IMG/VR virus record: IMGVR_UViG_3300027850_000169
Span: 27,697 to 91,696 of that record
Direction: 5' to 3' (one strand)
Origin: a virus
Length of the DNA: 64,000 nt
How positions within the stretch are numbered: the first letter of the stretch is position 1; each line of letters starts with the position of its first letter. Positions 12,513 through 45,123 of this stretch are shown piece after piece. The notes beneath the pieces were generated by a model. It was not told the DNA's origin, did not search any database, and was given only the letters and a program-made list of their open reading frames with translations. The translations under genes and the position numbers were made by a program.

Positions 12513-12690
12513 TTGAACGACAAAGACTTTGACATCCTCACCGACCTGAAGGCACGGTGATTCCTAAGACTCACAACTTAGGTTTCTGCTTCATAGCACC
12601 AGCCTTAACAGATTTACTCTGTTCAGGTCTTACAGTCGCTCCACAGACTGACACGGCAAGCCCTGCCGCCAAAATATTCTTTGCTGCATT
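12513..12690 (-). ncRNA. Putative omegaRNA (tnpB 3' end + right end + ~16-nt flanking guide)
   Basis: Expected location for an IS605 omegaRNA; boundaries are approximate. Confidence 0.55.
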
Positions 12691-13828
12691 GATATCTCGG
12701 TCATGGTTTGTCCCACACTTAGGACACTCCCACTCTCGAATATTCAAAGGCAGCTTTTCCACAACGTGACCACAATGCCCACACATCTTAGAACTAGGAA
12801 ACCATCGGTCAATCTTGACAAAAGTACGACCATACCAGCCGCACTTGTATTGGAGTTGCCTGACCAGTTCCCCCCAGCTAGCATCACTGATAGCAAGGGC
12901 AAGTTTGTGGTTCTTGACCATATTCTTCACAACCAAATCCTCAACGGCGATGGTTTGGTTTTCACGCACCAGTCGAGTTGTCAGTTTGTGAAGAAAATCC
13001 TTTCTAGAGTCGCTAATTTCTTGGTGAACTCTAGCAACTTTAAGTCTAGCTTTGTGTCGATTGTTGCTACCTTTGACCTTGCGGGACAAACGCTTCTGGG
13101 CTTTCTTGAGCTTGCGACGTTTAGTTTTGAAGCATTTAGGGTTTGCAACTTTCTCGCCATTGCTCAGGGTAATCAAGCTAGTGATACCCAAATCCAAACC
13201 AATCTGATTAGTAGATTCTTGCCATGTTTCAATTTCAGTGTCAACCAACAAAGAAACAGTCCATCTTCCAGAGGGTGCAAGTTTTACTGTAATAGTAGAT
13301 GGCTCAGTATCAGGTGGAATCTCCCGACTCCATCTGATATCCAACGGCTCAATACACTTTGCTAAGTAAACTTGTCCATCTTTCCACTTGAAAGCGGACT
13401 TGGTAAATTCTGCATTGCCACCATTATGCTTTTTCTTGAAGTTAGGGTATTTTGCCCGACCCGCAAAGAAGTTAGTAAAGGCGGATTGCAGATGCCTCAA
13501 GCCCTGCTGTACTGGCACACAGCTAACTTCGTTGAGAAATTGCAAGTCTTCTTGCTTTTTCCACTCGGTCAACATCGCAGAAGTTTCAGTGTATCCGACT
13601 CGCTCTTGCCTTTCATACCAAGCCTCCGTTCTAAGAGCAAGGGCTTTGTTGTAGACTAAACGAGCGCAACCCATCGTTCTTCTCAGCAAGTTTTCTTGCT
13701 CAGGAGTTGGATAGAATCGGTACTTGAATGCTTTCTGTGTCATACTTCACAGTATAGCATCTATTTCGTGAAAGTGTAAACTTTAATATAAAGCCGTCCT
13801 AGAAGGACGGGGTTTCAGACCTATTTTT
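12529..13828 (-). mobile_element. IS200/IS605-family element, tnpB only (IS1341-like)
   Basis: Left end follows TTAC and has the hairpin ccgtccttctaggacgg. Right-end hairpin caccgtgccttcaggtcggtg ends at TCAA. No tnpA. Confidence 0.9.
12571..13743 (-). CDS. tnpB: TnpB RNA-guided endonuclease
   Basis: HTH start KAFKYRFYPT; RuvC GLDLG / AVEDL / DRDINAA; Zn finger CGHC..CPKC. Confidence 0.95.
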   Translation of the reverse strand: MTQKAFKYRFYPTPEQENLLRRTMGCARLVYNKALALRTEAWYERQERVGYTETSAMLTEWKKQEDLQFLNEVSCVPVQQGLRHLQSAFTNFFAGRAKYPNFKKKHNGGNAEFTKSAFKWKDGQVYLAKCIEPLDIRWSREIPPDTEPSTITVKLAPSGRWTVSLLVDTEIETWQESTNQIGLDLGITSLITLSNGEKVANPKCFKTKRRKLKKAQKRLSRKVKGSNNRHKARLKVARVHQEISDSRKDFLHKLTTRLVRENQTIAVEDLVVKNMVKNHKLALAISDASWGELVRQLQYKCGWYGRTFVKIDRWFPSSKMCGHCGHVVEKLPLNIREWECPKCGTNHDRDINAAKNILAAGLAVSVCGATVRPEQSKSVKAGAMKQKPKL

Positions 13829-19423: not shown

Positions 19424-19463
19424 AATACTTGACGCATTCTAATTAACCTGCTATAATTAAATC

Positions 19464-19562
19464 AATCGATACATTTACAGCAATTGCGGTGAGTAGCGGT
19501 TTTAGTGTGTTGTTTTCATGTGAAGTGGTTTTTATCCCAAGCCTGCGAAAGCGGGTTTTTTT
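19464..19562 (+). ncRNA. Candidate multi-target antisense sRNA
   Basis: TTGACG(19429)-17 bp-TATAAT promoter; gcctgc-GAAA-gcgggt-T-run terminator; segments complementary to several early-gene 5' regions. Confidence 0.65.
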
Positions 19563-19576
19563 ATCAGAAAATTGGG

Positions 19577-19732
19577 TTGACAGGATTCGTATCTTCGATT
19601 AGAATAGACTTAACCGAACCACGAAAACTAAATAATATTCAATCTTTCCATAACACTTTTGCAATTGCGGGAGTCGATTTGCCGCAACCCAGCCTTGAAA
19701 ACTAGACGCACCAACGATTTCACACGTCGGCG
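19577..19732 (+). promoter_or_regulatory. CRISPR leader with promoter
   Basis: TTGACA-17 bp-TAGAAT; CCTTGAAAAC motif about 40 bp before repeat 1, resembling cyanobacterial leaders. Confidence 0.7.
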
Positions 19733-20875
19733 GTCGCAATCAACGCCACTCCCTACTAGGGATTGAAACTTGTAGCGTTGCTGGGTAACAGCCATCTGGT
19801 AAGGTCGCAATCAACGCCACTCCCTACTAGGGATTGAAACTCGCTCAAGCCCTCAATTTTCCCAGCCGTTCCTCGTCACAATCAACGCCACTCCCTACTA
19901 GGGATTGAAACTACGATTTAGCTTTCACGGCTGGCAACAATTTGTGTCACAATCAACGCCACTCCCTACTAGGGATTGAAACCTCGGATTTAAAGCAATT
20001 AATTCCTGTATCAATGGTCACAATCAACGCCACTCCCTACTAGGGATTGAAACCTCAAACATCGTTTTCATGACCAACAGCAATTTGTGTCGCAATCAAG
20101 CTCCACTCCCTACTAGGGATTGAAACGCCGATTTTGTATTCAATTCTGTCGTTAAATTGAGTCGCAATCAAGCTCCACTCCCTACTAGGGATTGAAACTC
20201 TTGCCAAACAGCAGATTCTCAAACTGCATCCCGGTCGCAATCAAGCTCCACTCCCTACTAGGGATTGAAACGCCCGATTCAGCAACTGCTGGCGCTTCTC
20301 CCTCGTCACAATCAAGCTCCACTCCCTACTAGGGATTGAAACCGCTGGGATGAAAGCGCTAGCCCCCTACTAGGGATTGAAACACAATCGAGCTAAGCCC
20401 CTACTAGGGATTGAAACCATGAGTGCAGAATAATCACAACCGACCGCTACTGCCGCAATCAAGCTAAACCTCTACTAGAGATTGAAACTGAGAAATTAAA
20501 AATGGCACAAAATACAACAATATCGCAATCAAACCAAACCCCTACTAGGGATTGAAACGCAATAAACCTAAACCCCTACTAGGGATTGAAACTTGCTCCT
20601 GTAGTCGGTGGCGGTGGAAGAAAGGCAGTCGCAATTGAGCTAAGCCCCTACTAGGGATTGAAACCTGATGTCAACTGTTCTTCACTAGCAGATACCGAGT
20701 CGCAATTGAGCTAAGCCCCTACTAGGGATTGAAACGCAATCAAAGTAAACCCTACTAGGGATTGAAACAAACGAGAGTGCGACTTTAAGATTTACCACAA
20801 TCTTGTCATAATCAAAGCAAACCCCTACTAGGGATTGAAGCGCAATAAACTCCACTCCCTACTAGGAATTAAAAC
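19733..20875 (+). CRISPR. CRISPR array: 19 repeat units (GTCGCAATCAACGCCACTCCCTACTAGGGATTGAAAC and variants), 13 spacers of 33-36 nt, one ~15-nt spacer, four spacerless junctions
   Basis: Repeats at 19733, 19804, 19875, 19946, 20017, 20089, 20161, 20234, 20305, ~20358, 20384, 20452, 20522, 20559, 20628, 20699, 20736, 20805, 20842. Confidence 0.97.
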
Positions 20876-20883
20876 GAAAGATT

Positions 20884-22719
20884 TCACCGGGATAATAAAT
20901 CTATCCTTTTTGTTTTTGCCTGTAACGCCCACTTAGACAAACCAATTGAAACTTCCTTCTGTAGAAGTTCAAGGCTTAATTCGCCCCATTTTTTCGCTTT
21001 CTTTGTTGCTACCAATCCTGCGAACAGTGCTAGTTCATCGTTGACCGCCGCATTGATATCACGGTGACACTTCCAGCCGCAGGTACATTCATACAATTTA
21101 ATTTTAGGGTCACTCATTGATGCCATCTTGTTTAGGCAGACTGGGCAAGTTTGCGAAGTGTAGGCAGCCGGATTTCTCAAAAAAGTACGTCCGTCACGTG
21201 CAGATTTCTGTTCTAGTTGTGCAATGAAATCGCCGTGTCCCGCGTCAGATAACGACTTTGCCAACCCAGTTTTTTGAGCTTTCCGGTTTTTCTTGTAGCC
21301 ACCTTTCTCTGTATCTTCTTGTGGCTTAGCTTGTGCTCGAAGATTTTGTGATTGCAGCCCGTTTTCACAGGAAATAAATTGATAGTTGGTTACAATCTCA
21401 GAGCTAAGCTTTTGGTTGAATCCCTTGCGTTGACGTTTAATCTTCTCGTGTAGTTTACTAATCCGATTCTGAATCTTTTTCTGTTCACTGGAAAGTGCTT
21501 GACAGTTCCACTTTAACTTTTGCCAGTACATCCCTCCGATTAGGGCAATACCTTCAGCTTCACTTTTGATTTCACAAAGCTTTTTGGCTTTGTCAGGCGA
21601 GCAATTAATAAGAGCTTTGATGTCTTTGTGTCGCCGTTCAGGATGATTTAACCAGAGAATCAGTCGGTGAGTCATTTTGTTAGCTAGTTCTTTCTGAAGC
21701 TCCGCTAATTTAATTTGAGCGTTCCGGTAGTAACGCGGATTTCCGTACTGCTTGCCGTTGCTTAAACTGATAAAGCTGTCTAGTCCAGGGTCGATTCCTA
21801 TCGACTTAGTTGTTTGTTTAATGCGTCGCCCCCGAACCAATTCGCCCGTTAGTTGGACATAGAAGCCTGAAGCGTATTGACATATTTTGAAGGCGGCAAT
21901 TTCTGGAATTGTGCCGTCTGGATTTTTCCACCGACGTGCTAGTCCTTTTAGCCGCAATTCACGAAGACCTGGTATACCTATTAGAGATTGAGAGTTTGCC
22001 TTGGGAACGATGACACCTTTTGGGTTGTTGTGAACCAGGGTTGCAACCTTGTCACGTCTGCGTTTAAACCGAGGCCGCCCCTTTTTTGCACCATTCTGAA
22101 CCCCGGCTCTTGACTTTGTGTACTCTTGCCAGCTAGTATCCAATCCAGCAAGAACTCCAGAGCGAAACTTGTACGGCATTTCTGTCATGAATTCGCGGTG
22201 TGCTGTTAGGTTGTTTCCTTTGATGACTTGACCTAACCCGCCCGCCTGTTGCAAACCCGGCTTAGAAATCAACGTTTCGCTGAAATCAACCGACAAAGGG
22301 CAACTGTAACCAGTAACCGACCCATGTTCTGAGTTCTGCCAGCCCCAAGATTCTTTCTTCTCTGCTGGCTGCGGAACTTTTACCCGCTTCAACTCTCGGA
22401 TATACCAATGAGACTTATCATCGTAAATGACACTGTAGGGCGCTTGGATTATTGACTTACCTTTGTCTTTTGAAACGATTGCACCTTCCTCATCTACAAA
22501 GTGACTCCAATACTTCCAAGGTAATCGACAGCATGGAGCGTACCCGCCACTCTCTTTACCATCTAAACCGTTCGTAGCTTTGTAGTAGTAATAATTTGTT
22601 TCAAAATCTTCTAAGGCTGACAATCCACAATTCCACACAGACTTAGAAATTTGCAACCACTTTTCTATTTTTTCTTTCTGTTCAAGAGATGGAAAACATT
22701 TAAATTCTAGTGTGAGCAT
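20884..22719 (-). CDS. TnpB-derived compact type V (Cas12-like) effector, ~611 aa
   Basis: RuvC-I GIDPG, RuvC-II SCENG, RuvC-III HRDINAA; Zn finger CPVC..CTCG; large insertions relative to TnpB; stop 8 bp from the array; probable start MLTLEFK (alternative 22764). Confidence 0.85.
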   Translation of the reverse strand: MLTLEFKCFPSLEQKEKIEKWLQISKSVWNCGLSALEDFETNYYYYKATNGLDGKESGGYAPCCRLPWKYWSHFVDEEGAIVSKDKGKSIIQAPYSVIYDDKSHWYIRELKRVKVPQPAEKKESWGWQNSEHGSVTGYSCPLSVDFSETLISKPGLQQAGGLGQVIKGNNLTAHREFMTEMPYKFRSGVLAGLDTSWQEYTKSRAGVQNGAKKGRPRFKRRRDKVATLVHNNPKGVIVPKANSQSLIGIPGLRELRLKGLARRWKNPDGTIPEIAAFKICQYASGFYVQLTGELVRGRRIKQTTKSIGIDPGLDSFISLSNGKQYGNPRYYRNAQIKLAELQKELANKMTHRLILWLNHPERRHKDIKALINCSPDKAKKLCEIKSEAEGIALIGGMYWQKLKWNCQALSSEQKKIQNRISKLHEKIKRQRKGFNQKLSSEIVTNYQFISCENGLQSQNLRAQAKPQEDTEKGGYKKNRKAQKTGLAKSLSDAGHGDFIAQLEQKSARDGRTFLRNPAAYTSQTCPVCLNKMASMSDPKIKLYECTCGWKCHRDINAAVNDELALFAGLVATKKAKKWGELSLELLQKEVSIGLSKWALQAKTKRIDLLSR

Positions 22720-22778
22720 AATTGAAAATCTTTTGCAAAGGGCTTTACAAACCCAGTATATCATGTTATCTTAGTAAT

Positions 22779-22962
22779 ATAAAGGTAGGGAGCTTTCACC
22801 CCATTACCTGTGAGCTTTGACTCAAGAAAGCGAGTGTAGCGAAAGCAGCTTGAAGCTAGTCGTAAGACAGCAATCCTGAAAAATCGAAAGATGCGGGGAA
22901 ACCCAAACAGGATAATTATCTAGTAGGGCAAAAGAGTGGGAGTAATCTCGCTCTTTTGTTTT
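22779..22962 (+). ncRNA. Candidate tracrRNA
   Basis: TTTACA-17 bp-TATCTT promoter; four GNRA-capped hairpins; anti-repeat segments TTTCA, CAATCC and CTAGTAGGG; terminal hairpin followed by a T run. Confidence 0.7.
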
Positions 22963-22995
22963 GGATTGAAACTGAAATTGAAATTGAAATTGAAT

Positions 22996-23055: not shown

Positions 23056-23652
23056 ATGCAATTACTCCTTAATAGCGACTCACCGCAATCCGAAATTGAG
23101 ATTAGCCAGCAGTTGCAACTATCTAATAGCGACTCACCGCAATCCGAAGGCATTGAAGAAATTAACTGGCAGTTGCAGCTAGCCAGCAAGGTACAAATCA
23201 AACGGTGTAGCAAATGTGGAGTTTTCTCCAAGCTGTATCAAAGTATCCCGCCAAAACGACTTGACGCTTGGTGCGATGACTGTTTTGTCAATACTCCAGC
23301 AATAGAACGCACTCGAAAAACCTCAGTCGGTGAACATTGGAAGTTGATACAGAAACAAGAAAAAGAAGCTCAAGAAAGAGCGGAATTGGTAGCACAGTTA
23401 CAGGCACAAAAGGAATTGCTAGCCGAAAAACGTGCTAAGGAGAGGAAGAATGCACCTAAAAAGTCAAAAAAGAAGACCGTAGAAGGCGCTTATTTGTTAG
23501 CCCTGGACTTTGGGGAGTTGAGCGTTGATGTAGAGGAAGACGAAGCACGGGACGCGATACTGGCACATGATGCACGACGGGCGTACATTGCACGAGCGCA
23601 AGATAGGACAATTTTTGATGAAGACTATTATGGCGAACGGAATGATGATTAG
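23056..23652 (+). CDS. Zn-ribbon/coiled-coil hypothetical protein with N-terminal tandem duplication
   Basis: CSKC..CDDC; NSDSPQSE occurs twice. Confidence 0.6.
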   Translation: MQLLLNSDSPQSEIEISQQLQLSNSDSPQSEGIEEINWQLQLASKVQIKRCSKCGVFSKLYQSIPPKRLDAWCDDCFVNTPAIERTRKTSVGEHWKLIQKQEKEAQERAELVAQLQAQKELLAEKRAKERKNAPKKSKKKTVEGAYLLALDFGELSVDVEEDEARDAILAHDARRAYIARAQDRTIFDEDYYGERNDD

Positions 23653-26210: not shown

Positions 26211-27827
26211 ATGACATTAACACCTCGAACAGTTCCAGAATTAATTGCAGAAATTGATATCCTTACCTCTGAAATTCAAGAATTGTATTTGCAGGGAAAT
26301 CCATTCGTTGTTGGATGGAGTGGAGGCAAAGATAGCACAACCGTGCTTCAACTTATATGGAATGCTATTAAGCGACTACCAAAAGAACAGCGCAAATACC
26401 CTCTTTATGTGATTACTAATGACACTTTAGTTGAAAATCCAATTATTTCCGCCCATGTTAGGAATGCTTTGAAGTTGATAGATGCGGCAGCAAAAGAGCA
26501 AAATATACCTGTTATGACTAAAATGACAACCCCTGAAATAAAGAATTCTTTTTGGGTTTGTTTAATTGGGAAAGGTTATGCCGCACCACGACAAGGGTTT
26601 CGTTGGTGTACTGACAAGCTTAAAATTAGACCCGCTGAAAAATTTATCAACGAAGTGGTTACAATCGAAGGTCAAATGATACTTGCTCTTGGTGTTCGAG
26701 AGGCTGAAAGTGCGACGCGAGCTGCGAGTATGGAAAAACAACGTGAATTTAAAGTAAGTGAAAGATTAAATAAGAATCAACTACACGTTGGTTCACTTAC
26801 TTACAGTCCAATTCGGAGTTGGCGCACGGATGAAGTCTGGCTTTATTTAATGCAGTACGAAAATCCTTGGGGATGCGACAACAAGGATTTGTTTGCAATA
26901 TATCGAGGCGCAACAGCGGATAACGAATGCCCTCTAGTTGTTGATGCTTCCACTCCTAGTTGCGGAAGTTCTCGTTTTGGTTGCTGGACGTGTACTCTTG
27001 TATCTAAAGACAAGTCTACAGAAGCAATGATTCAAAACGATGAAGACAAAGAATGGATGCAGGTTCTACTTGATATTCGCAATGAGTTAGATGTTCGTGA
27101 TGACGAAGGAAAACACGCTGACCATGACAAAAGAGACTGGAAAGGCAACTCAGGAAAAGTAAGGTTTTACACTAAATTTTACAATGCGAGGGAAGAAGAT
27201 AATTCTACTATGCTTAAGCCTGTTCCAGGGCCCTACATCAAATTTTGGCGAGAACACTGGCTGAGGCGAGTCTTGGAAGCACAAACTCAAATACGCAAAA
27301 CCGCACCAGAAGAAATGCGCGACATCACCTTAATCACCCCAGAAGAACTTAGCGAAATCCGCCGCATTTGGAGAGAAGAGAAACACGAATTTGACGATAG
27401 TTTGCCCCGGATTTACGAACAGGCTACAGGAGAGTCGTTTGCAGACATTTCTTGTACAGATGAACGAAACGCTTTGGGTAAAGAAGAATGGGATATCTTG
27501 TCTGAAATATGCGAAGAAGATGAAACGCATTTTCACTTGATAGCAAGCCTCCTCAACGAAACAAATAAAACACATTTAAAGACGCGCCGCAAAGATGTAT
27601 TCAAAGCATTGGAAAAATGCTTTGACGCTAATTCCCGCTCTATGGAGGAAGCGGTTGCAAGCAGTCATGAAAAAAACAAGTTGACCAAGACTGTTGAATC
27701 CGTAAAAAAAGAAGGTCTTGGCGAACTCAATAAAGTTAAACAAATGTTAAACAAAGATACTCCCAATAGCAAACAGCTTTCTTGGGCTGACGTTAAATTC
27801 GCACCGTCTGTCGAACAATTACAATAA
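26211..27827 (+). CDS. dndC: DNA phosphorothioation sulfurtransferase DndC (PAPS-reductase family)
   Basis: SGGKDS, DTLVENP, IGKGY.AP...FRWCT..LKI.P, GVR..ES..R, ECPLVVD.STPSCG.SRFGCW.C, PGPY. Confidence 0.9.
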   Translation: MTLTPRTVPELIAEIDILTSEIQELYLQGNPFVVGWSGGKDSTTVLQLIWNAIKRLPKEQRKYPLYVITNDTLVENPIISAHVRNALKLIDAAAKEQNIPVMTKMTTPEIKNSFWVCLIGKGYAAPRQGFRWCTDKLKIRPAEKFINEVVTIEGQMILALGVREAESATRAASMEKQREFKVSERLNKNQLHVGSLTYSPIRSWRTDEVWLYLMQYENPWGCDNKDLFAIYRGATADNECPLVVDASTPSCGSSRFGCWTCTLVSKDKSTEAMIQNDEDKEWMQVLLDIRNELDVRDDEGKHADHDKRDWKGNSGKVRFYTKFYNAREEDNSTMLKPVPGPYIKFWREHWLRRVLEAQTQIRKTAPEEMRDITLITPEELSEIRRIWREEKHEFDDSLPRIYEQATGESFADISCTDERNALGKEEWDILSEICEEDETHFHLIASLLNETNKTHLKTRRKDVFKALEKCFDANSRSMEEAVASSHEKNKLTKTVESVKKEGLGELNKVKQMLNKDTPNSKQLSWADVKFAPSVEQLQ

Positions 27828-34359: not shown

Positions 34360-35502
34360 TTACCCTAAGATTCTACAGGCACATTCGGGCCTGATAACAG
34401 CACATCCGTAGAGAACGTCGAAACAGAATTTTGTCTGTTTGTATTCGCGAGAAATCTCCAACCGCATTGTCATTCCCGACAGGTCATCGGTAAAAGATTC
34501 AATCCGATTTCCGATTGGGTCAATGTCTAACAATGGGCGAACAGCAAGCGCAAAGGAGTCTCGGTGGAAAGCCATGTTGACGACGTGACTAGCTACAACC
34601 GTGATAGCTGTACTCGCAGCGGGAGCAGTTTTTAGTGCTGGAGAAATTGGCCAACTTGTTAAGGTAGCGTCCTTTCCTACAACGTAGCCGTTCGGGTCGC
34701 CTGCAATCTTGAACAAATCACCTTCGGCAGGTGCGACTGTTGCACCAGAAACAGTTAAAGTTTTCACCCCAATCGTGTTGGCTGCGCCCGTCGTAACAAT
34801 CGTACCCGCAGCTTGGGTTACGTGAGTAAGGGAGTTTTGGGTCATGTACCAGTCAAAGCCAAGTTTTCGACCAATCATCCCCTCTTGAATTGTTGCAACA
34901 GAACCAGAGTCGGATGCAGAAATAAATTGAGGGAGTGAGGTTGCGTTTGCCTCAGCATCAACATCTAAGATAATTCGGCGGTCAGCCATTGGAGCAAGTT
35001 GTCGGTTCAGAACTTTTCTTGCTTCTTGTGCTGCACCCAACCCACGATGTGAGGCATAAGTTCCAGCTACTTCCGGTTGAAAAGGTGTTTGTCCAGCGGT
35101 TCCGGCGATACCTGGAATCTGTTTGTACAAACCCATAATTGACTTGTCAATCGAGTTCGCCAAACTACGAGCGGCTTCGAGAACTTGCAAATTTTGAAAT
35201 CCATCCATTACTTGAAGAAGGTCTTTGTCTGTCATCGCAAATTCAACCTTCTTCCACTGGTCAAGCTTTACTTGCACCATGCTCGGCGAAATTGCTGGAG
35301 CGGGGTAGGGGATGTGATTGGGAATTACATCTACGGCATCGCCCATGCTGGAAGGAATTGGAACATCGACAGTTGAACCGCGTTGCCTTGCGTCGGTGTC
35401 AAAGTTTCGATTAACGAGCGCACCCATGATTGAGTTTTCGCGCAACGCCACAATACCTTGGGCGAGAATTTTAGGGATTACTGCTTCTAAATTATTAGCC
35501 AC
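34360..35502 (-). CDS. Major capsid protein (P22 coat-like, HK97 fold)
   Basis: RG.TV..PIP, A...LA..ID, G.IG...GF....QN, AFHRD.FALA.RPL, DVLYG....RPE. Confidence 0.9.
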   Translation of the reverse strand: MANNLEAVIPKILAQGIVALRENSIMGALVNRNFDTDARQRGSTVDVPIPSSMGDAVDVIPNHIPYPAPAISPSMVQVKLDQWKKVEFAMTDKDLLQVMDGFQNLQVLEAARSLANSIDKSIMGLYKQIPGIAGTAGQTPFQPEVAGTYASHRGLGAAQEARKVLNRQLAPMADRRIILDVDAEANATSLPQFISASDSGSVATIQEGMIGRKLGFDWYMTQNSLTHVTQAAGTIVTTGAANTIGVKTLTVSGATVAPAEGDLFKIAGDPNGYVVGKDATLTSWPISPALKTAPAASTAITVVASHVVNMAFHRDSFALAVRPLLDIDPIGNRIESFTDDLSGMTMRLEISREYKQTKFCFDVLYGCAVIRPECACRILG

Positions 35503-36422: not shown

Positions 36423-36463
36423 AAATGATTATAATAGAGACTTCAATCTTTATTATAATCACC

Positions 36464-37990
36464 ATGTCGCTTAAATTCAAGCATCAAGCCATCGAACAAG
36501 ACCCAGACTTGCCATCTTATTTGAGTGAAGAATACTTGAATCAGTTGCCGTTCTGGGAATTCGTAGCTGATATGTACGAAGGCAGAACGGCATGGCGCAT
36601 GGTTGACCCAGTTCGGAATGGCTCAAGTATGGTTCTTGACATCAATATGGGCGCAAGATATTTGCCCAGAGAAGAGGCTGAACCTGAAGAAGAGTATGCG
36701 AAGCGCCTGTCTCGAAGTTACTTTGACAGAAAGTTTGCAGATGCTATCGACAGTAGTGCCGGATTTTTGTCTCGCTTTTTATTGAATGATGATGTACACG
36801 AAAGTATTGAAACCAGTATCGAGAACGTTGACCTCTGTGGTAACAGTCTGGAGGTATTCTTGAAGGCAGCAGATATAAAAAGTCTGCGAGATGACCACTG
36901 CTTTGTCATGGTTGATTTTCCAAAGCGAAACACCGAAATAACTGACGCTTATACTGAATCAAAATACAAAACTCGCCCCTATTTTTTATTAATTGATGCT
37001 AGAGATGTTATTAACTGGAATACTGAAATTAAGAACAATAAAATGATGGTGACTCAAGCCACAGTTCGGGAAACTTTTGTTAGAAAAACTGGACGATACG
37101 GTAGTGAAAAAGCGACTCGATATCGAGTGTTAACCCCAGGCGCTTATGAGGTATATGAAATAGAAGAAACGGCGACGCGGACTGATTTAATTTTAGTTGA
37201 AGAAGGTACAACCACGCTAGATTTTGTACCGTTGATTCCCTATTGCTTGCTACCGAGAGATTCAGACTTTTTTACTGGCAGACCACCATTGTATGACATT
37301 GCAGAACTAAATTTAAAATTATACCAAAAGCAGTCTGAAAAAGATGAAGCGATGCACAAAGCGAATATGGCTATTTTGCAAATTCAAGAAATAAGTCCTC
37401 CTAAAGTGAGGTCTGACAAAGACGAAACTCGTGTTGCAACAATAGGGCCGAACACTTGTCTGTGGAACGTGAACGCTTCATTTGTTGAACCATCGGGTTC
37501 AGCACTAGGACATACACAAGCTGACATTGAAAAGCTAGAGCTAACTATTGAGAAAAAGACACTTGCTTTTCAAAGTGGATACGCTGCACCCCCTACGGCA
37601 ACAGAGATTGCGCGTGATTCAGCTACGGCACAAGCTAGTCTAGGCTCAATGGCTAGAGCTAAAGAAAGCATTGTGCAGCAACTTTTTGATACTTGGTGCT
37701 TGTACATGAATGCACCGGGCAAAGGTGGAACTATTAAAGTCAATAAAAAGATTGTTGAAGTTGGAATGAGTGAAGCAAAAGCCGGATTGTTATTACAAAT
37801 CCGTGCCGCTGGTGAGATTACTCGTCAAACATTCTTAGAAGAGTTACGCAAAGGTGAAGTGTTGAGCAAAGACCTTGATGTTGATGCCGAAGTTGAAGAA
37901 CTAGAGAGTAAAATGAAGCAAGAGATGACAACACAATTAAGTAAGGCGACGGCATTAGCAAATGACAACCCCGCAGCAATTTATCAGTAG
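36464..37990 (+). CDS. Portal protein (DUF4055-like)
   Basis: YLPR...E....Y..RL, NVDL.G.SL, VDFP, RPY, INW, PPL.D.A.LN. Confidence 0.85.
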   Translation: MSLKFKHQAIEQDPDLPSYLSEEYLNQLPFWEFVADMYEGRTAWRMVDPVRNGSSMVLDINMGARYLPREEAEPEEEYAKRLSRSYFDRKFADAIDSSAGFLSRFLLNDDVHESIETSIENVDLCGNSLEVFLKAADIKSLRDDHCFVMVDFPKRNTEITDAYTESKYKTRPYFLLIDARDVINWNTEIKNNKMMVTQATVRETFVRKTGRYGSEKATRYRVLTPGAYEVYEIEETATRTDLILVEEGTTTLDFVPLIPYCLLPRDSDFFTGRPPLYDIAELNLKLYQKQSEKDEAMHKANMAILQIQEISPPKVRSDKDETRVATIGPNTCLWNVNASFVEPSGSALGHTQADIEKLELTIEKKTLAFQSGYAAPPTATEIARDSATAQASLGSMARAKESIVQQLFDTWCLYMNAPGKGGTIKVNKKIVEVGMSEAKAGLLLQIRAAGEITRQTFLEELRKGEVLSKDLDVDAEVEELESKMKQEMTTQLSKATALANDNPAAIYQ

Positions 37991-40581: not shown

Positions 40582-40940
40582 GCTTTTAGTATCTGCTTGA
40601 ACGAATTGATATCTTTGGCTTTAAGAATACTTTTTGATTTTTCTTTTTTGTTCTGAATATTCGCCCAAGTTCTATGTTCTAACTCGCCCAAATCAAGAGA
40701 ATCATTGCTCAAGGTAGATTCTAATACACGTTTAAACTGGTCAACCTCAGATTCATTAAGCAATATATTAGCCAGTCGCCACGCCTTGCGAATAGTCTGC
40801 GGGTCTTCATTTCCAAAGTCCGCTAAGCTTGTGAAATCATTAGTGAAACTAGCTTTTAAAAATCGAATAGCCAATATTCCCGATTCCATTGTTTTAACTC
40901 TTGTAATATCCAATGCCTGTTTGATATCGAATAGGTTCAT
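40578..40940 (-). CDS. Hypothetical protein
   Basis: Overlaps the terminase 3' end. Confidence 0.5.
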   Translation of the reverse strand: MNLFDIKQALDITRVKTMESGILAIRFLKASFTNDFTSLADFGNEDPQTIRKAWRLANILLNESEVDQFKRVLESTLSNDSLDLGELEHRTWANIQNKKEKSKSILKAKDINSFKQILKA

Positions 40941-42303
40941 TTAGACAGAAATGTGCACCAGAAGCAGCATCGGTAATATCTTTGACTTTCCCATCAGGAA
41001 AATCGTGCATCCAGTTTAAAAATCTGTCATTCCACGAGGCTCGTAGAAGCTTGACTTTCCCCCTAAAAGTGTCAGTAGCCAAAGGCTTTGCACGTTTCAC
41101 CTTGTCTCCGAGTGGTCGGACACCTTCTGCATCAATGTCTGAGTGTAATCCCATTAGTAATTGTTTGATATGCTCCTCGTCGCGTTTTCCACTACTTCCC
41201 CCTTCCAACTCCCAACGGACTTTGCACCACAATCCGTCCTGTTGTGCGGTTGCTACCATTAGCTCGTCGCCGCCAACCGGCCCAACTTGTTCGGCGATAA
41301 CATCTACCACGTAATAAATATCGTCAACTAATCGCATTTTGACTCCGGCGGTATAGCAGGCGTTAGAACGAACGGCCGCCTCTGTTGCCGCCAAATCCCA
41401 AAACCTAACTTCTTCACCGCTGTAATCTAAACGCGGAACATCATCAACAATTTCAAACCAAGCGCGGTTAAATAGCTTACCCGACTCTTCCTTAACTTTC
41501 CAATTTCCGTAAAGTAGTCGAGCTTGGTCTACCGGATGCAAAGCCTGAAGATTTGCCAGATACTCCGGGTTCTGCTGCATCAAAATTTGATTGTCTTCGA
41601 TTTTAGCAGGGATGAAGGTAAAGCTTTTTGCCATTAAGCCAGGATATCTATTCTCAAGTTCATCTCTTGAGCTACCCCAAACAATCTCACCACTCTGCCG
41701 AACAAAGTAGCGAACGACTCCACTATGCTCTGTAATTGGGAACCCTTCGTCATCTAGCCACCAATCAATAAACCCTGCAATCCAAGAGTCGGCATCAGGG
41801 TTAGTTGTACAGCGAACATAGGGGCGGATTCCACAAGTTGAGCGGTTGCGACTGAACAGGTAAAAAATAGCCGACTCACTAAAATGGGTTAATTCATCTA
41901 TTAGCAAAAGCGGAATTTGACTACCTTGATACTTGTACTTAGCTTGCTCGTTTCCCAAATGTCCAAAGCCTATCTTTGCGCCACTAGAAAACAACCAATC
42001 AAGTGTACTTTTTTTGGGAGTCGCACCTAGCAGCGGATAGATATCTTCTGATGTATCCCAAAGCGCTCCTTCTTCGGTTATCTGAGCAAAACTTTGCCTG
42101 AACAAAACGGCTCCAAACTTTGGATTTCCTATATGACGCAAAGGTTCTAGCATTAAAGCGTAGCTTTTTCCTCCACCTGCCGCGCCACCGTAAATACAAA
42201 AATCTGCCGAGGTAGTTAAGAACGCTTCCTGTTGCCCTGACTGTGGCTTGAGTATTAAATCTGATGACTTGACGGGTAATTTCTTGTATTGTTTTACGGG
42301 CAT
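40894..42303 (-). CDS. terL: Terminase large subunit
   Basis: YGGAAGGGKS, LIDELTHF, TTNP, RFWDLAA, DK..RA, FP...D..DA. Confidence 0.95.
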   Translation of the reverse strand: MPVKQYKKLPVKSSDLILKPQSGQQEAFLTTSADFCIYGGAAGGGKSYALMLEPLRHIGNPKFGAVLFRQSFAQITEEGALWDTSEDIYPLLGATPKKSTLDWLFSSGAKIGFGHLGNEQAKYKYQGSQIPLLLIDELTHFSESAIFYLFSRNRSTCGIRPYVRCTTNPDADSWIAGFIDWWLDDEGFPITEHSGVVRYFVRQSGEIVWGSSRDELENRYPGLMAKSFTFIPAKIEDNQILMQQNPEYLANLQALHPVDQARLLYGNWKVKEESGKLFNRAWFEIVDDVPRLDYSGEEVRFWDLAATEAAVRSNACYTAGVKMRLVDDIYYVVDVIAEQVGPVGGDELMVATAQQDGLWCKVRWELEGGSSGKRDEEHIKQLLMGLHSDIDAEGVRPLGDKVKRAKPLATDTFRGKVKLLRASWNDRFLNWMHDFPDGKVKDITDAASGAHFCLNEPIRYQTGIGYYKS

Positions 42304-43863: not shown

Positions 43864-45123
43864 ATGACTTTAGACGTTTATTGGGGAGGATTGTTTTATA
43901 ATTCGTGCGCGCCACTAGAGCTAAGTTTAAACTGGTGTACTCATAACTGCGCGTACTGTTTTGCAAATCTGAATCTACCAAACCGCAAAGTAGAAGCCAA
44001 ACAAATACTTAACTTTTTAACGAGTTACGAAAAACGCACAAGCTACGCGGCGTGGTTGTTACAGCGGGGTTATCCCGTAGTATTCTCCAGTCACGTCGAC
44101 CCATTTGCTGTTGCAAATGAAGATTTGAGCCTGAGCATTATTGAACTATTTGGACTCAAGGGAATTCCATTTATATTGCAAACCAAAGGCGGTCGGCGTG
44201 TTTATGACGCAATTGACATGATAGATACCCCGATAGTTTGGTATGTCAGTATTTCCACCTTGAACGAAGATATAGCTAAAAAAGTTGAACCGGGCGCGCC
44301 ACTAATTCACGAGCGACTGCGGATGATTGAAAAAGTTGTTGCCAAAGGTCATCAGGTGTGCGTAGGAATCAACCCTTGCGTCCCTGATTGGTTGCCCAAT
44401 CCTAGAGAAATGACAGATAGACTAAAAGATATAGGGGTATGGGGGGTAAACGTTAATCCAATGCACTTGAGTAGCACTCAGCTTAAAAATATGCCCGCCC
44501 GTGGGAAAACTGCGCTAGGAAAAGAAGTATTGCACCAAGCTCTTTACAGGAGTAAACACCCTGAAGTAACACAGCACTGTTTGACTACAAAAGACGCTGT
44601 AGTTCAATCGGGAATGGAAATAATAAGTAGTGGCCAAGGGACTCCCTCTCATTTTTTCAAACCTTATAAAGACTTGTACCCCATCAGGTTTCCACTGTAC
44701 CAAGATTTTGTTAATTTCTGCCACGAGACAAAAAAGGATGGAGACGCTATATATTATGAAGAATACTTGAGTTATTTTCTCCCTCAGCTTCCTGATATTG
44801 AACTCAAAACGTTAAATCAGCACGTTTACGCGACAACTTTAGGGGTAAGCTTGCACGGTAAAGGCCCCGACATCTATCAAAGTATTACAAACTACGAAAC
44901 GTTGCTTGAGAAAATTTGGCAGCACTATGAGATAAGTTTCTGTCCGGTACGTTTTGACTGTTTTTCTTGGGCAGCAGACTGGGAAATACAAGCAAATGGG
45001 GAAGAGGGATGGACTCAATATCTAGATGATAACGATAGACCTATATTGATTTTCAAGCCTAATTTCACCGAGGCTGAATGGTTTACTCAGTGGAGTCCAA
45101 CAGGTGACTCTAGTATTGTCTAG
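43864..45123 (+). CDS. Radical SAM enzyme (spore-photoproduct-lyase-like)
   Basis: CTHNCAYC (CxxxCxxC), DPF, LQTK, EPGAP....RL. Confidence 0.9.
   Translation: MTLDVYWGGLFYNSCAPLELSLNWCTHNCAYCFANLNLPNRKVEAKQILNFLTSYEKRTSYAAWLLQRGYPVVFSSHVDPFAVANEDLSLSIIELFGLKGIPFILQTKGGRRVYDAIDMIDTPIVWYVSISTLNEDIAKKVEPGAPLIHERLRMIEKVVAKGHQVCVGINPCVPDWLPNPREMTDRLKDIGVWGVNVNPMHLSSTQLKNMPARGKTALGKEVLHQALYRSKHPEVTQHCLTTKDAVVQSGMEIISSGQGTPSHFFKPYKDLYPIRFPLYQDFVNFCHETKKDGDAIYYEEYLSYFLPQLPDIELKTLNQHVYATTLGVSLHGKGPDIYQSITNYETLLEKIWQHYEISFCPVRFDCFSWAADWEIQANGEEGWTQYLDDNDRPILIFKPNFTEAEWFTQWSPTGDSSIV

Follow-up and report, generated by a model that had tools for sequence, protein, structure and literature searches.

Does a compact TnpB-like nuclease gene that lies beside a CRISPR array in a phage genome form a CRISPR system with that array, and from where would such a system draw its guides and spacers? 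The question is raised by a stretch of 64,000 nucleotides (positions 27,697 to 91,696 of virus record IMGVR_UViG_3300027850_000169), which constitutes the 3' 64 kb of a 91,696-bp IMG/VR record rated 100% complete by CheckV. The whole stretch is referred to as the window, and coordinates without a locus name are those of the window. An earlier note, made from the sequence alone, had described a compact type V system with a tracrRNA-like RNA and no adaptation genes. It suggested the V-U2, Cas12f-like or a new lineage, and a type I-D array recruited from the host. The locus is best described, and in our view probably correctly, as a phage-borne type V-U2 module that consists of the effector C2c8, a divergent trans-activating CRISPR RNA (tracrRNA) of about 185 nt, and an array derived from type I-D with its own promoter and leader. 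The comparisons below establish the family membership of the nuclease, the conservation of its catalytic residues, the linkage to arrays across loci and the type I-D origin of repeat and leader. They also establish that spacers turn over, that protospacers flanked by GTY exist, and that a conserved RNA is present whose complementarity is specific to each locus. Of the earlier interpretation, the V-U2 affinity, the host I-D array, the absence of adaptation genes and the tracrRNA-like RNA stand; the new or Cas12f-like lineage and the implied novelty do not.

The effector gene, c2c8, occupies positions 20884-22719 of the minus strand and encodes a protein of 611 aa. The open frame extends further (20884-22764, minus strand, 626 aa). 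The start was assigned to M16 at 22719 because the family consensus opens with MLTLEFK and because a related locus, L003 (98% identical), has the upstream ATG followed by an in-frame TGA. In the numbering of the 611-aa form, the protein contains the RuvC-I motif GIDPG (D310), the RuvC-II motif CENG (E452), the RuvC-III motif RDINAA (D554) and a CxxC...CxC zinc finger, much as the earlier note had read them. Across 21 homologs (30-89% identity) the three acidic residues and the four cysteines of the zinc finger show little or no variation. C2c8 is apparently a catalytically competent nuclease, judging from these residues. A candidate promoter (TTTATA, 17 nt, TATACT, with TG) at 22755-22783 on the minus strand is weak (9/12 consensus) and lies back to back with a candidate promoter of the divergent RNA (22744-22772, plus strand), likewise 9/12.

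Classification rests on comparison with curated hidden Markov models (HMMs). The NCBIfam model of C2c8, NF038192, matches the protein with 394.6 bits against a cut-off of 350 (E 7e-118), and a six-frame search of the genome agrees. The scores against the TnpB models are 122.3 bits for IS200_TnpB (cut-off 425) and 52.7 bits for IS607_TnpB (cut-off 350). Pfam recovers TnpB domains only (OrfB_IS605 and Cas12f1-like_TNB). With a score above the curated NF038192 cut-off, the protein is assigned to C2c8, type V-U2; this upholds one of the suggested placements and replaces the alternatives of a new or Cas12f-like lineage. The gene is single-copy in the phage record. The window also encodes an ordinary TnpB of 390 aa with all three Pfam domains (12571-13743, minus strand), which is the sole other match to the C2c8 model in the record (86 bits). 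Compared with this TnpB, C2c8 is 221 aa longer, in line with the surplus of about 220 aa and the N-terminal and RuvC-I/II insertions reported before. The additional sequence falls into three parts: approximately 126 aa ahead of RuvC-I, a stretch between RuvC-I and RuvC-II (residues 350-409), and a segment beyond RuvC-II (residues 460-480).

An AlphaFold2 model of C2c8 has a mean predicted local distance difference test score (pLDDT) of 80, and its core matches ISDra2 TnpB with a Z score of 21 over 335 residues. For the N-terminal 200 aa, the PDB contains no matching sequence. In a quick, midpoint-rooted tree the window protein falls within a 'long' clade of proteins of 600-720 aa (Shimodaira-Hasegawa approximate likelihood ratio test, SH-aLRT, 98). 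Among its other members are proteins of Planktothrix and Lyngbya genomes and of further viral contigs. Forms classed as 'short' (466-585 aa), which are covered by the same HMM and include that of Aphanizomenon phage vB_AphaS-CL131 (CL131), are placed elsewhere in the tree.

The CRISPR array (19733-20875, plus strand) contains 19 repeats of about 37 nt, ending in GGGATTGAAAC, and 13 spacers of 33-36 nt. The repeats form three variant blocks, and the gene-proximal end is degenerate: in this half of the array four repeats are preceded by no spacer or, at 20367, by a short fragment only. The last repeat ends at 20875 and the stop codon of c2c8 occupies 20884-20886, which leaves the 8-bp gap described for this 19-repeat array. 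A promoter with 11/12 consensus positions (TTGACA, 17 nt, TAGAAT) lies at 19577-19605 on the plus strand, approximately 130 nt upstream of repeat 1. The leader follows (19606-19732, plus strand); its final 53 nt share homology with a type I-D leader of a host and include CCTTGAAAAC at 19693-19702 (-40 to -31 from repeat 1). By eye, a similar promoter and leader accompany the C2c8-linked arrays of the Lyngbya-group loci L005-L007. The array is read as transcribed from the plus strand, convergent with c2c8 as had been proposed, because of this promoter and the leader homology, because weak Rfam CRISPR-DR matches occur on the plus strand only, and because the side of the flank resembling a protospacer adjacent motif (PAM) agrees with promoter and leader. 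A stand-alone unit of promoter (TTGACG, 17 nt, TATAAT) and terminator is situated at 19429-19562 (plus strand), directly upstream of the array promoter.

Linkage of array and effector is a property of the family. Homologs of C2c8 in about 79 clusters (50% identity) match the protein at E < 1e-30, several of them on contigs of 87-94 kb, close to the size of this phage. At every locus with a readable array side, the array adjoins the gene, which answers positively the check for consistent array linkage that the earlier note had called for. These loci are two closely related phage contigs (L003 and L009), a further viral locus (L004), loci from Planktothrix, Lyngbya and Microcoleaceae (L005-L008), five further cyanobacterial genomes, and CL131; L010 and L012 end before the array could be seen. 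In L003 and L009 c2c8 sits in the same place as in the window, and they are not independent lineages. About 6 of 401 sampled cyanobacterial genomes carry c2c8, and four cyanobacterial genomes hold exactly one above-cut-off copy each among 11-120 TnpB-like matches. The array mostly lies downstream of the gene and co-directional with it; it is upstream and divergent in L008 and L019, and downstream and convergent in this phage. Because its orientation relative to c2c8 varies, the array appears to be a separate transcription unit. With the exception of a Bro-N gene in CL131, no flanking gene is common to this phage and the other loci, which suggests that the cassette moves between contexts. In two Lyngbya-type loci (L007:7869-7895 and L011:6869-6895) the 3' part of the c2c8 open reading frame (ORF) includes a half repeat, consisting of the last 18-19 nt or so of the repeat of the locus and ending in GGGATTGAAAC. 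It runs in the array sense about 300 nt before the first repeat and recalls the omega RNA of TnpB, which overlaps the 3' end of its gene.

The third component is a tracrRNA-like structured RNA of approximately 185 nt at 22780-22965 (plus strand, ends predicted), recognized by its fold, a covariance model and an anti-repeat. It comprises a 5' hairpin with a CUUUC loop (22793-22797), three hairpins capped by GAAA loops, and a terminal hairpin of 18 bp with a U-tract after it. The anti-repeat is located at 22912-22928, with its core CTAGTAGGG at 22920-22928. The region 22770-22972 (203 nt) folds with z = -3.4 on the plus strand, better than 200 of 200 shuffles, and with z = -1.35 on the minus strand; the structured RNA noted earlier as divergent from the gene is therefore strand-specific. 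No Rfam family matches it, and nhmmer and blastn searches reached only two near-identical relatives. A covariance model derived from the window and two near-identical relatives found matches upstream of c2c8, and divergent from it, in L010 (E 7e-6; protein 43% identical), L014 (E 6e-4), L006 (E 0.14), L005 (E 0.21) and L007 (E 2). A divergent upstream RNA is present at about ten loci in all.

Most of these RNAs, and likewise those of L004, L008 and L019, have three features in common that follow one another in a fixed order: a single YUUUC in the loop of a 5' hairpin, an anti-repeat and a terminal hairpin. The 5' loop is GUUUC where the repeat ends in GAAAC (L006, L007, L014, L008 and L019) and CUUUC where it ends in GAAAG (L004, L005 and L010). 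The anti-repeat is found directly 5' of the terminal hairpin and is complementary to the mid-part of the repeat of its own locus. In L005 it extends over 16 bp (-26.5 kcal/mol, z = -7.3) and ranks first among the sites of the locus; the repeat segment with which it pairs is not palindromic. It measures 12 bp in L019, about 16 bp with one bulge in L006 and L007, 9 bp in L004, and 10+5 bp in the window. Between window and L003 the sole change in the anti-repeat, A to G, is paralleled by a T-to-C change in the repeat. The stem sequence of the terminator-like hairpin varies between loci with pairing kept; the hairpin is not evident in L008 and L019. The same scan found no clear anti-repeat RNA at the short-form loci L015, L016 and CL131. 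These comparisons support the view that the divergent RNA behaves like a tracrRNA. The strongest repeat complementarity in the 15 kb scanned (-34.5 kcal/mol, z = -6.6) lies outside it, at 23497-23532 (plus strand) within ORF 23057-23652; the complementarity is to the newest repeat variant, in its 5' half, and may reflect chance or an inverted-repeat relic.

The origin of the array is indicated by cyanobacterial type I-D systems. A scan with the array found similar repeats in 94 of 401 cyanobacterial genomes, by far the best match being G327, in which 130 repeat copies adjoin a complete type I-D operon (Cas10d/Csc3, Csc2, Csc1, Cas6, Cas4, Cas1d and Cas2). Its repeat deviates from that of the window at a few bases (1-3 by eye). 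The two leaders share 38 of 53 positions (72%) over the last 53 nt, in register to the first repeat and with CCTTGAAAAC included. Since repeat and repeat-proximal leader both match a complete I-D locus, the array is traced to a host type I-D array, as the resemblance of the repeat had led the earlier note to propose. It is like cyanobacterial type I-D arrays in repeat, repeat-proximal leader, spacer lengths and GTN flanks; it differs from them in being linked to a class 2 effector and its RNA. The spacers of the G327 I-D array have only weak matches to the phage (22/24 and 29/34 identities).

The phage element is without the Cas1, Cas2, Cas4 and Cas6 of the type I-D system. A Pfam search of the whole 91,696-bp record gave no match to these four proteins, nor to TniQ or the Y1 transposase (TnpA), which extends the absence of cas1, cas2, cas4 and cas6 claimed for the window to the entire 91.7-kb record. 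Adaptation in trans has been proposed for type V-K. There, arrays were argued to be filled by I-D Cas1-Cas2-Cas4, partly on the basis of a leader motif; a motif near -44 of the leader is reportedly important for I-D adaptation, and in one genome a V-U2 array shares a near-identical spacer with a V-K array (bioRxiv 10.1101/2021.02.06.429022). Indirectly, the I-D leader motif, the GTY flanks and the spacer turnover make it most likely that new spacers in the phage array are likewise inserted by the host I-D Cas1-Cas2-Cas4.

Turnover is evident from the two related phage contigs. Flanks, gene and upstream RNA of L003 and L009 are 92-98% identical to those of the window. None of their 11 spacers is common with the 13 of the window, and the main repeat variant also differs. 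The window spacers include none that matches the phage itself. Protospacers were sought among contigs of four freshwater metagenomes aligned to the locus. Short contigs match single spacers and then continue into unrelated, non-array sequence, which identifies these matches as protospacers in other elements. One contig of 2,994 nt holds the protospacers of two spacers, 20665 and 20769 (0 and 1 mismatch). The 5' flank, taken as the three bases before the protospacer in the sense of the plus-strand CRISPR RNA (crRNA), is GTT for spacers 19912 and 20769, GTT for spacer 20127 (ATT in another sample), and GTC for spacer 20665. For spacer 20054 it is GTC, with less certainty, since the spacer mismatches at its first three bases. 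Flanks of GTT or GTC are therefore found for 4-5 of the 6 spacers, with a binomial chance of about 7e-5 to 5e-6 (1/16 expected per spacer). They fit the GTN PAM of type I-D, Cas12k and Cas12p. Flanks of this kind reveal the choice of the adaptation machine, not the requirement of C2c8.

Spacer 19841 has 2-3 mismatches to a multi-copy locus; of 401 cyanobacterial genomes, 10 contain it, each in 1-4 copies. The protospacer (L035-L040, 1501-1534) falls at the junction of two small genes, for which there were only sub-threshold hints, of Arc/HicB for one and of a coiled coil for the other. These loci are often on short contigs, and the target is probably part of a plasmid-like or other mobile element. 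INPHARED phages have no match to the array at E up to 1, PLSDB plasmids have repeat-like matches only, exact cores of three spacers were not found in IMG/VR, and spacer 19912 gave no match in 391 cyanobacterial genomes when up to 3 mismatches were allowed. Use against competing elements is indirectly supported by the protospacers in co-occurring contigs and by the cyanobacterial locus matched by spacer 19841.

From these observations we infer transcription, RNA processing, complex formation, cleavage, the spacer-inserting machinery and the identity of the targets. The array would be transcribed from the plus strand. The middle of the repeat would pair with the anti-repeat ahead of the terminal hairpin of the tracrRNA, and the last bases of the repeat (GAAA-C/G) would pair with the YUUUC loop of the 5' hairpin to form a pseudoknot, as in Cas12p. 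The resulting C2c8-tracrRNA-crRNA complex would recognise DNA with a 5'-GTN PAM and cut it with RuvC. The I-D Cas1-Cas2-Cas4 of the host would recognise leader and repeat, select the GTN PAM and insert spacers, and whole array blocks may also be swapped by recombination between repeats. The targets would be other mobile elements of the same freshwater cyanobacterial community.

A broader and more tentative proposal, which we offer as a possibility only, is that long-form V-U2 is a class 2 module that lives off the I-D leader, repeat and GTN PAM, so that its arrays would be filled by the Cas1-Cas2-Cas4 of the host. A dedicated tracrRNA would divert the transcripts to a nuclease of about 600 aa, which phages would carry against rival elements. 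If this were true, phages would exchange blocks of the array and adjacent cargo through recombination at copies of the repeat, and a single array could serve the host Cascade and the phage nuclease alike.

Several observations weigh against the V-U2 module as described. No terminator was predicted in 20876-21200 (plus strand), between the last repeat and the c2c8 stop, so that transcripts of the array would run antisense into c2c8. The protospacers of spacer 19841 are preceded by no GTN. The leader-proximal repeat of L003 is unlike the next ten, which suggests block exchange by recombination alongside or instead of stepwise acquisition. For the RNA, three of the five covariance matches (L006, L005 and L007; E 0.14-2) are not significant alone, though they lie in the same place. 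The window group is an exception to the correspondence of loop and repeat end, since its CUUUC loop faces a GAAAC end and mismatches at the last position; the rule holds in only about 6 of 7 independent lineages, which alone amounts to roughly P 0.06. The anti-repeat of the window is short and, because it overlaps the repeat's palindromic core, also resembles a repeat copy. Moreover, it is not the top-ranked complementary site in the region, and a cross-locus matrix of anti-repeat/repeat energies does not always favour the cognate pair. Finally, the repeats are near-identical to genuine I-D repeats, and cleavage by the Cas6 of the host, 8 nt ahead of the spacer, is probable. The repeat segment that pairs with the tracrRNA would therefore be lost, and the transcripts may feed the host I-D complex instead or as well.

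This last point leads to the alternative that the phage array mainly feeds the host I-D machinery (Cas6, Cascade/Cas10d) against phage competitors, with C2c8 playing a minor part or being linked for other reasons. Repeat and leader are almost identical to those of a true I-D locus, GTN is the I-D PAM too, and the spacers have the 33-36 nt of I-D arrays, whereas Cas12k and Cas12p use a guide of only about 17 nt. In addition, cyanophage N-1 has an array without a cas gene (PMC6293099). However, C2c8 is also linked to arrays in genomes with no I-D genes in the flanks read by eye, and a co-varying anti-repeat RNA travels with c2c8, for which a Cas6-only route would have no need. We therefore consider it unlikely that the array serves the host machinery in the main.

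Type V-U2 (C2c8) was reportedly defined by Shmakov et al. in 2017. The window locus shares with the type the TnpB-like effector with RuvC and zinc finger, the adjacent array, the absence of other cas genes, and the occurrence in cyanobacteria and phages. No defining difference separates the two; what is added here is the candidate tracrRNA, the GTN-like PAM, and the type I-D repeat and leader. In a 2024 review table V-U2 is listed without a PAM and marked as having no tracrRNA. The implied novelty of the locus is reduced by earlier work. A phage-encoded V-U2 system was published in 2018 for CL131, with no tracrRNA and no host-repeat similarity (PMC6293099), and adaptation dependent on I-D was already proposed for V-K arrays (bioRxiv 10.1101/2021.02.06.429022). 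Like the window, CL131 has a phage C2c8 (450.8 bits) by an array, no other cas genes, and a Bro-N gene nearby. Its effector differs in being a 466-aa short form of another tree group, with about 32-36% identity over about half of the protein. Its repeat is unrelated to that of the window and does not resemble I-D repeats, and its array lies 255 nt downstream of the gene and has the same orientation.

The best solved match of C2c8 is Cas12p (profile E 2e-37, 132 bits; Foldseek E 4e-18; Z 17 over 427 residues), also called the 'Cas12 hacker' (V-P; PDB 9JFS and 9JG3). Cas12p is phage-encoded, has 500-700 aa, depends on a tracrRNA and uses a GTN PAM. Between its tracrRNA and the repeat there is a conserved pseudoknot at the AAAC end (AAAC:GUUU) and a second duplex, of repeat and anti-repeat. 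Cas12p cleaves DNA and depends on host thioredoxin, bound through a TB domain in REC (bioRxiv 10.1101/2025.01.20.633832). The layout of the upstream RNA resembles that of the Cas12p tracrRNA because it combines the YUUUC loop with repeat:anti-repeat pairing. Both proteins also have an insertion after RuvC-II (GY..N...AK.GL). However, their identity is only about 22% over a partial match, and the window protein belongs to the C2c8 HMM family. Membership of the Cas12p family was rejected, as the profile match is partial and distant and C2c8 is the best curated family. Host thioredoxin might be needed if the kinship with Cas12p extends to the N-terminal insertion with its near-invariant cysteines; no thioredoxin gene was found in the phage.

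Cas12k (V-K, formerly V-U5) is similar in other respects. It is cyanobacterial and about 640 aa long, its repeats of 37 nt end in TTGAAAG, it uses a GTN PAM and a long tracrRNA, and it lacks adaptation genes; it also shares the leader motif and the proposed I-D adaptation in trans (bioRxiv 10.1101/2021.02.06.429022). Cas12k works with Tn7 genes, whereas the C2c8 of the window has an intact RuvC triad, there is no TniQ in the record, and the structural match is weaker than that to Cas12p, with a Z score of about 11. Identity with Cas12k or a type V-K CRISPR-associated transposon (CAST) was rejected on the intact RuvC and the absence of TniQ from the record.

These relatives bear on the alternative that C2c8 is an RNA-guided DNA binder or regulator and not a cutter. 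Such a function has been proposed for small V-U effectors and for the CL131 system (PMC6293099). The sister subtypes Cas12m and Cas12k work without cleavage, and the convergent array could regulate c2c8 through antisense transcription. However, the RuvC triad and zinc finger vary little or not at all throughout the C2c8 family, whereas large branches of Cas12k have altered catalytic sites (PMC10691335). Moreover, Cas12p, the closest solved relative, cleaves DNA, and the spacers match foreign contigs and not the phage itself. A role restricted to binding is in our judgement quite improbable.

The 3' end of the RNA region offers a further alternative. The RNA is followed by a copy of the repeat 3' end, GGATTGAAAC (22963-22972), and by the remains of a (TGAAAT)n repeat (together 22963-22995, plus strand), at the point where homology with related phages breaks. 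Homology to L003 and L009 stops exactly at 22973 and resumes at 22992, and these relatives carry 4.2 kb there. The RNA of L010 likewise ends in GGGATTGAAAG, and in L008 and L019 the array directly follows the RNA. This suggests that the GGATTGAAAC tail is a relic of an array once placed after the RNA. It could also be read as part of a self-contained natural single guide similar to an omega RNA, with use of the array still compatible. The terminal hairpin would then stand for the repeat:anti-repeat duplex, the RNA would end in GGATTGAAAC and the bases that follow would be a fixed guide. The RNAs of the window, L003/L009 and L010 do end in GG(G)ATTGAAA(C/G), and phage homology breaks exactly after this motif. 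However, the motif is absent in L004 and L005 and vague in L006, L007 and L014, whereas the anti-repeat, 5' loop and terminal hairpin recur in most loci (L008 and L019 having no clear terminal hairpin). The hairpin and U-tract would probably terminate the transcript before the motif, and the 'guide' in the window would be a (TGAAAT)n repeat. A single guide of this kind is very unlikely. Least credible of all is an ordinary IS200/IS605-type TnpB lying by chance beside a captured array: the Pfam domains and a fold core matching ISDra2 TnpB (Z 21) are those of TnpB, but the protein scores below both TnpB cut-offs and above that of C2c8, the record has no TnpA, the gene is single-copy where TnpBs number dozens, and the array is present at all loci with a readable array side.

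As a probable V-U2 module, the locus belongs to one of the last of the original 'V-U' subtypes without experimental characterisation. Together with its relatives it provides a testable parts list: a 611-aa effector whose nuclease site is intact, a candidate tracrRNA for which pairing rules are predicted, the strand from which the array would be transcribed, and a likely GTN PAM taken from natural protospacers. It is a clear case of a virus that holds a class 2 effector with an array built for a class 1 adaptation machine, and it bears on the sharing of CRISPR parts between types as well as between phages and hosts. Should the nuclease prove active, a compact enzyme with a GTN PAM would be of interest in practice, even though a number of small Cas12 enzymes exist already.

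The window belongs to a phage genome, given the CheckV completeness and three encoded proteins: a coat protein of P22 type (34360-35502), a portal-like protein with DUF4055 (36425-37990) and a large terminase of T4 type (40894-42303). A megablast search with 20 kb of the phage record gave zero matches to known phages; the contigs that contain this phage sequence come from freshwater metagenomes. Two other genes may have a function in DNA modification or anti-defence. These are a 538-aa protein with a PAPS-reductase domain (26211-27827, plus strand) and a 419-aa radical SAM enzyme (43864-45123, plus strand).

In the related phages, a 4.2-kb cassette (L003:1543-5746 and L009:543-4746) directly follows the GGATTGAAAC motif, corresponding to the insertion point 22973-22991 of the window. 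It contains genes for GTP cyclohydrolase I, QueD (PTPS), a QueE-like radical SAM protein, QueC, ParB-N and a 338-aa protein of unknown family, and resembles a gene set for 7-deazaguanine modification of DNA. A degenerate solo repeat (L003:1565-1596) borders its far end, so that the cargo lies between repeat copies like an oversized spacer. Downstream of the RNA in the window, an ORF includes a perfect 25-nt direct repeat (23070-23094 and 23124-23148, 54 nt apart), which L003 and L009 also hold in slightly diverged form.

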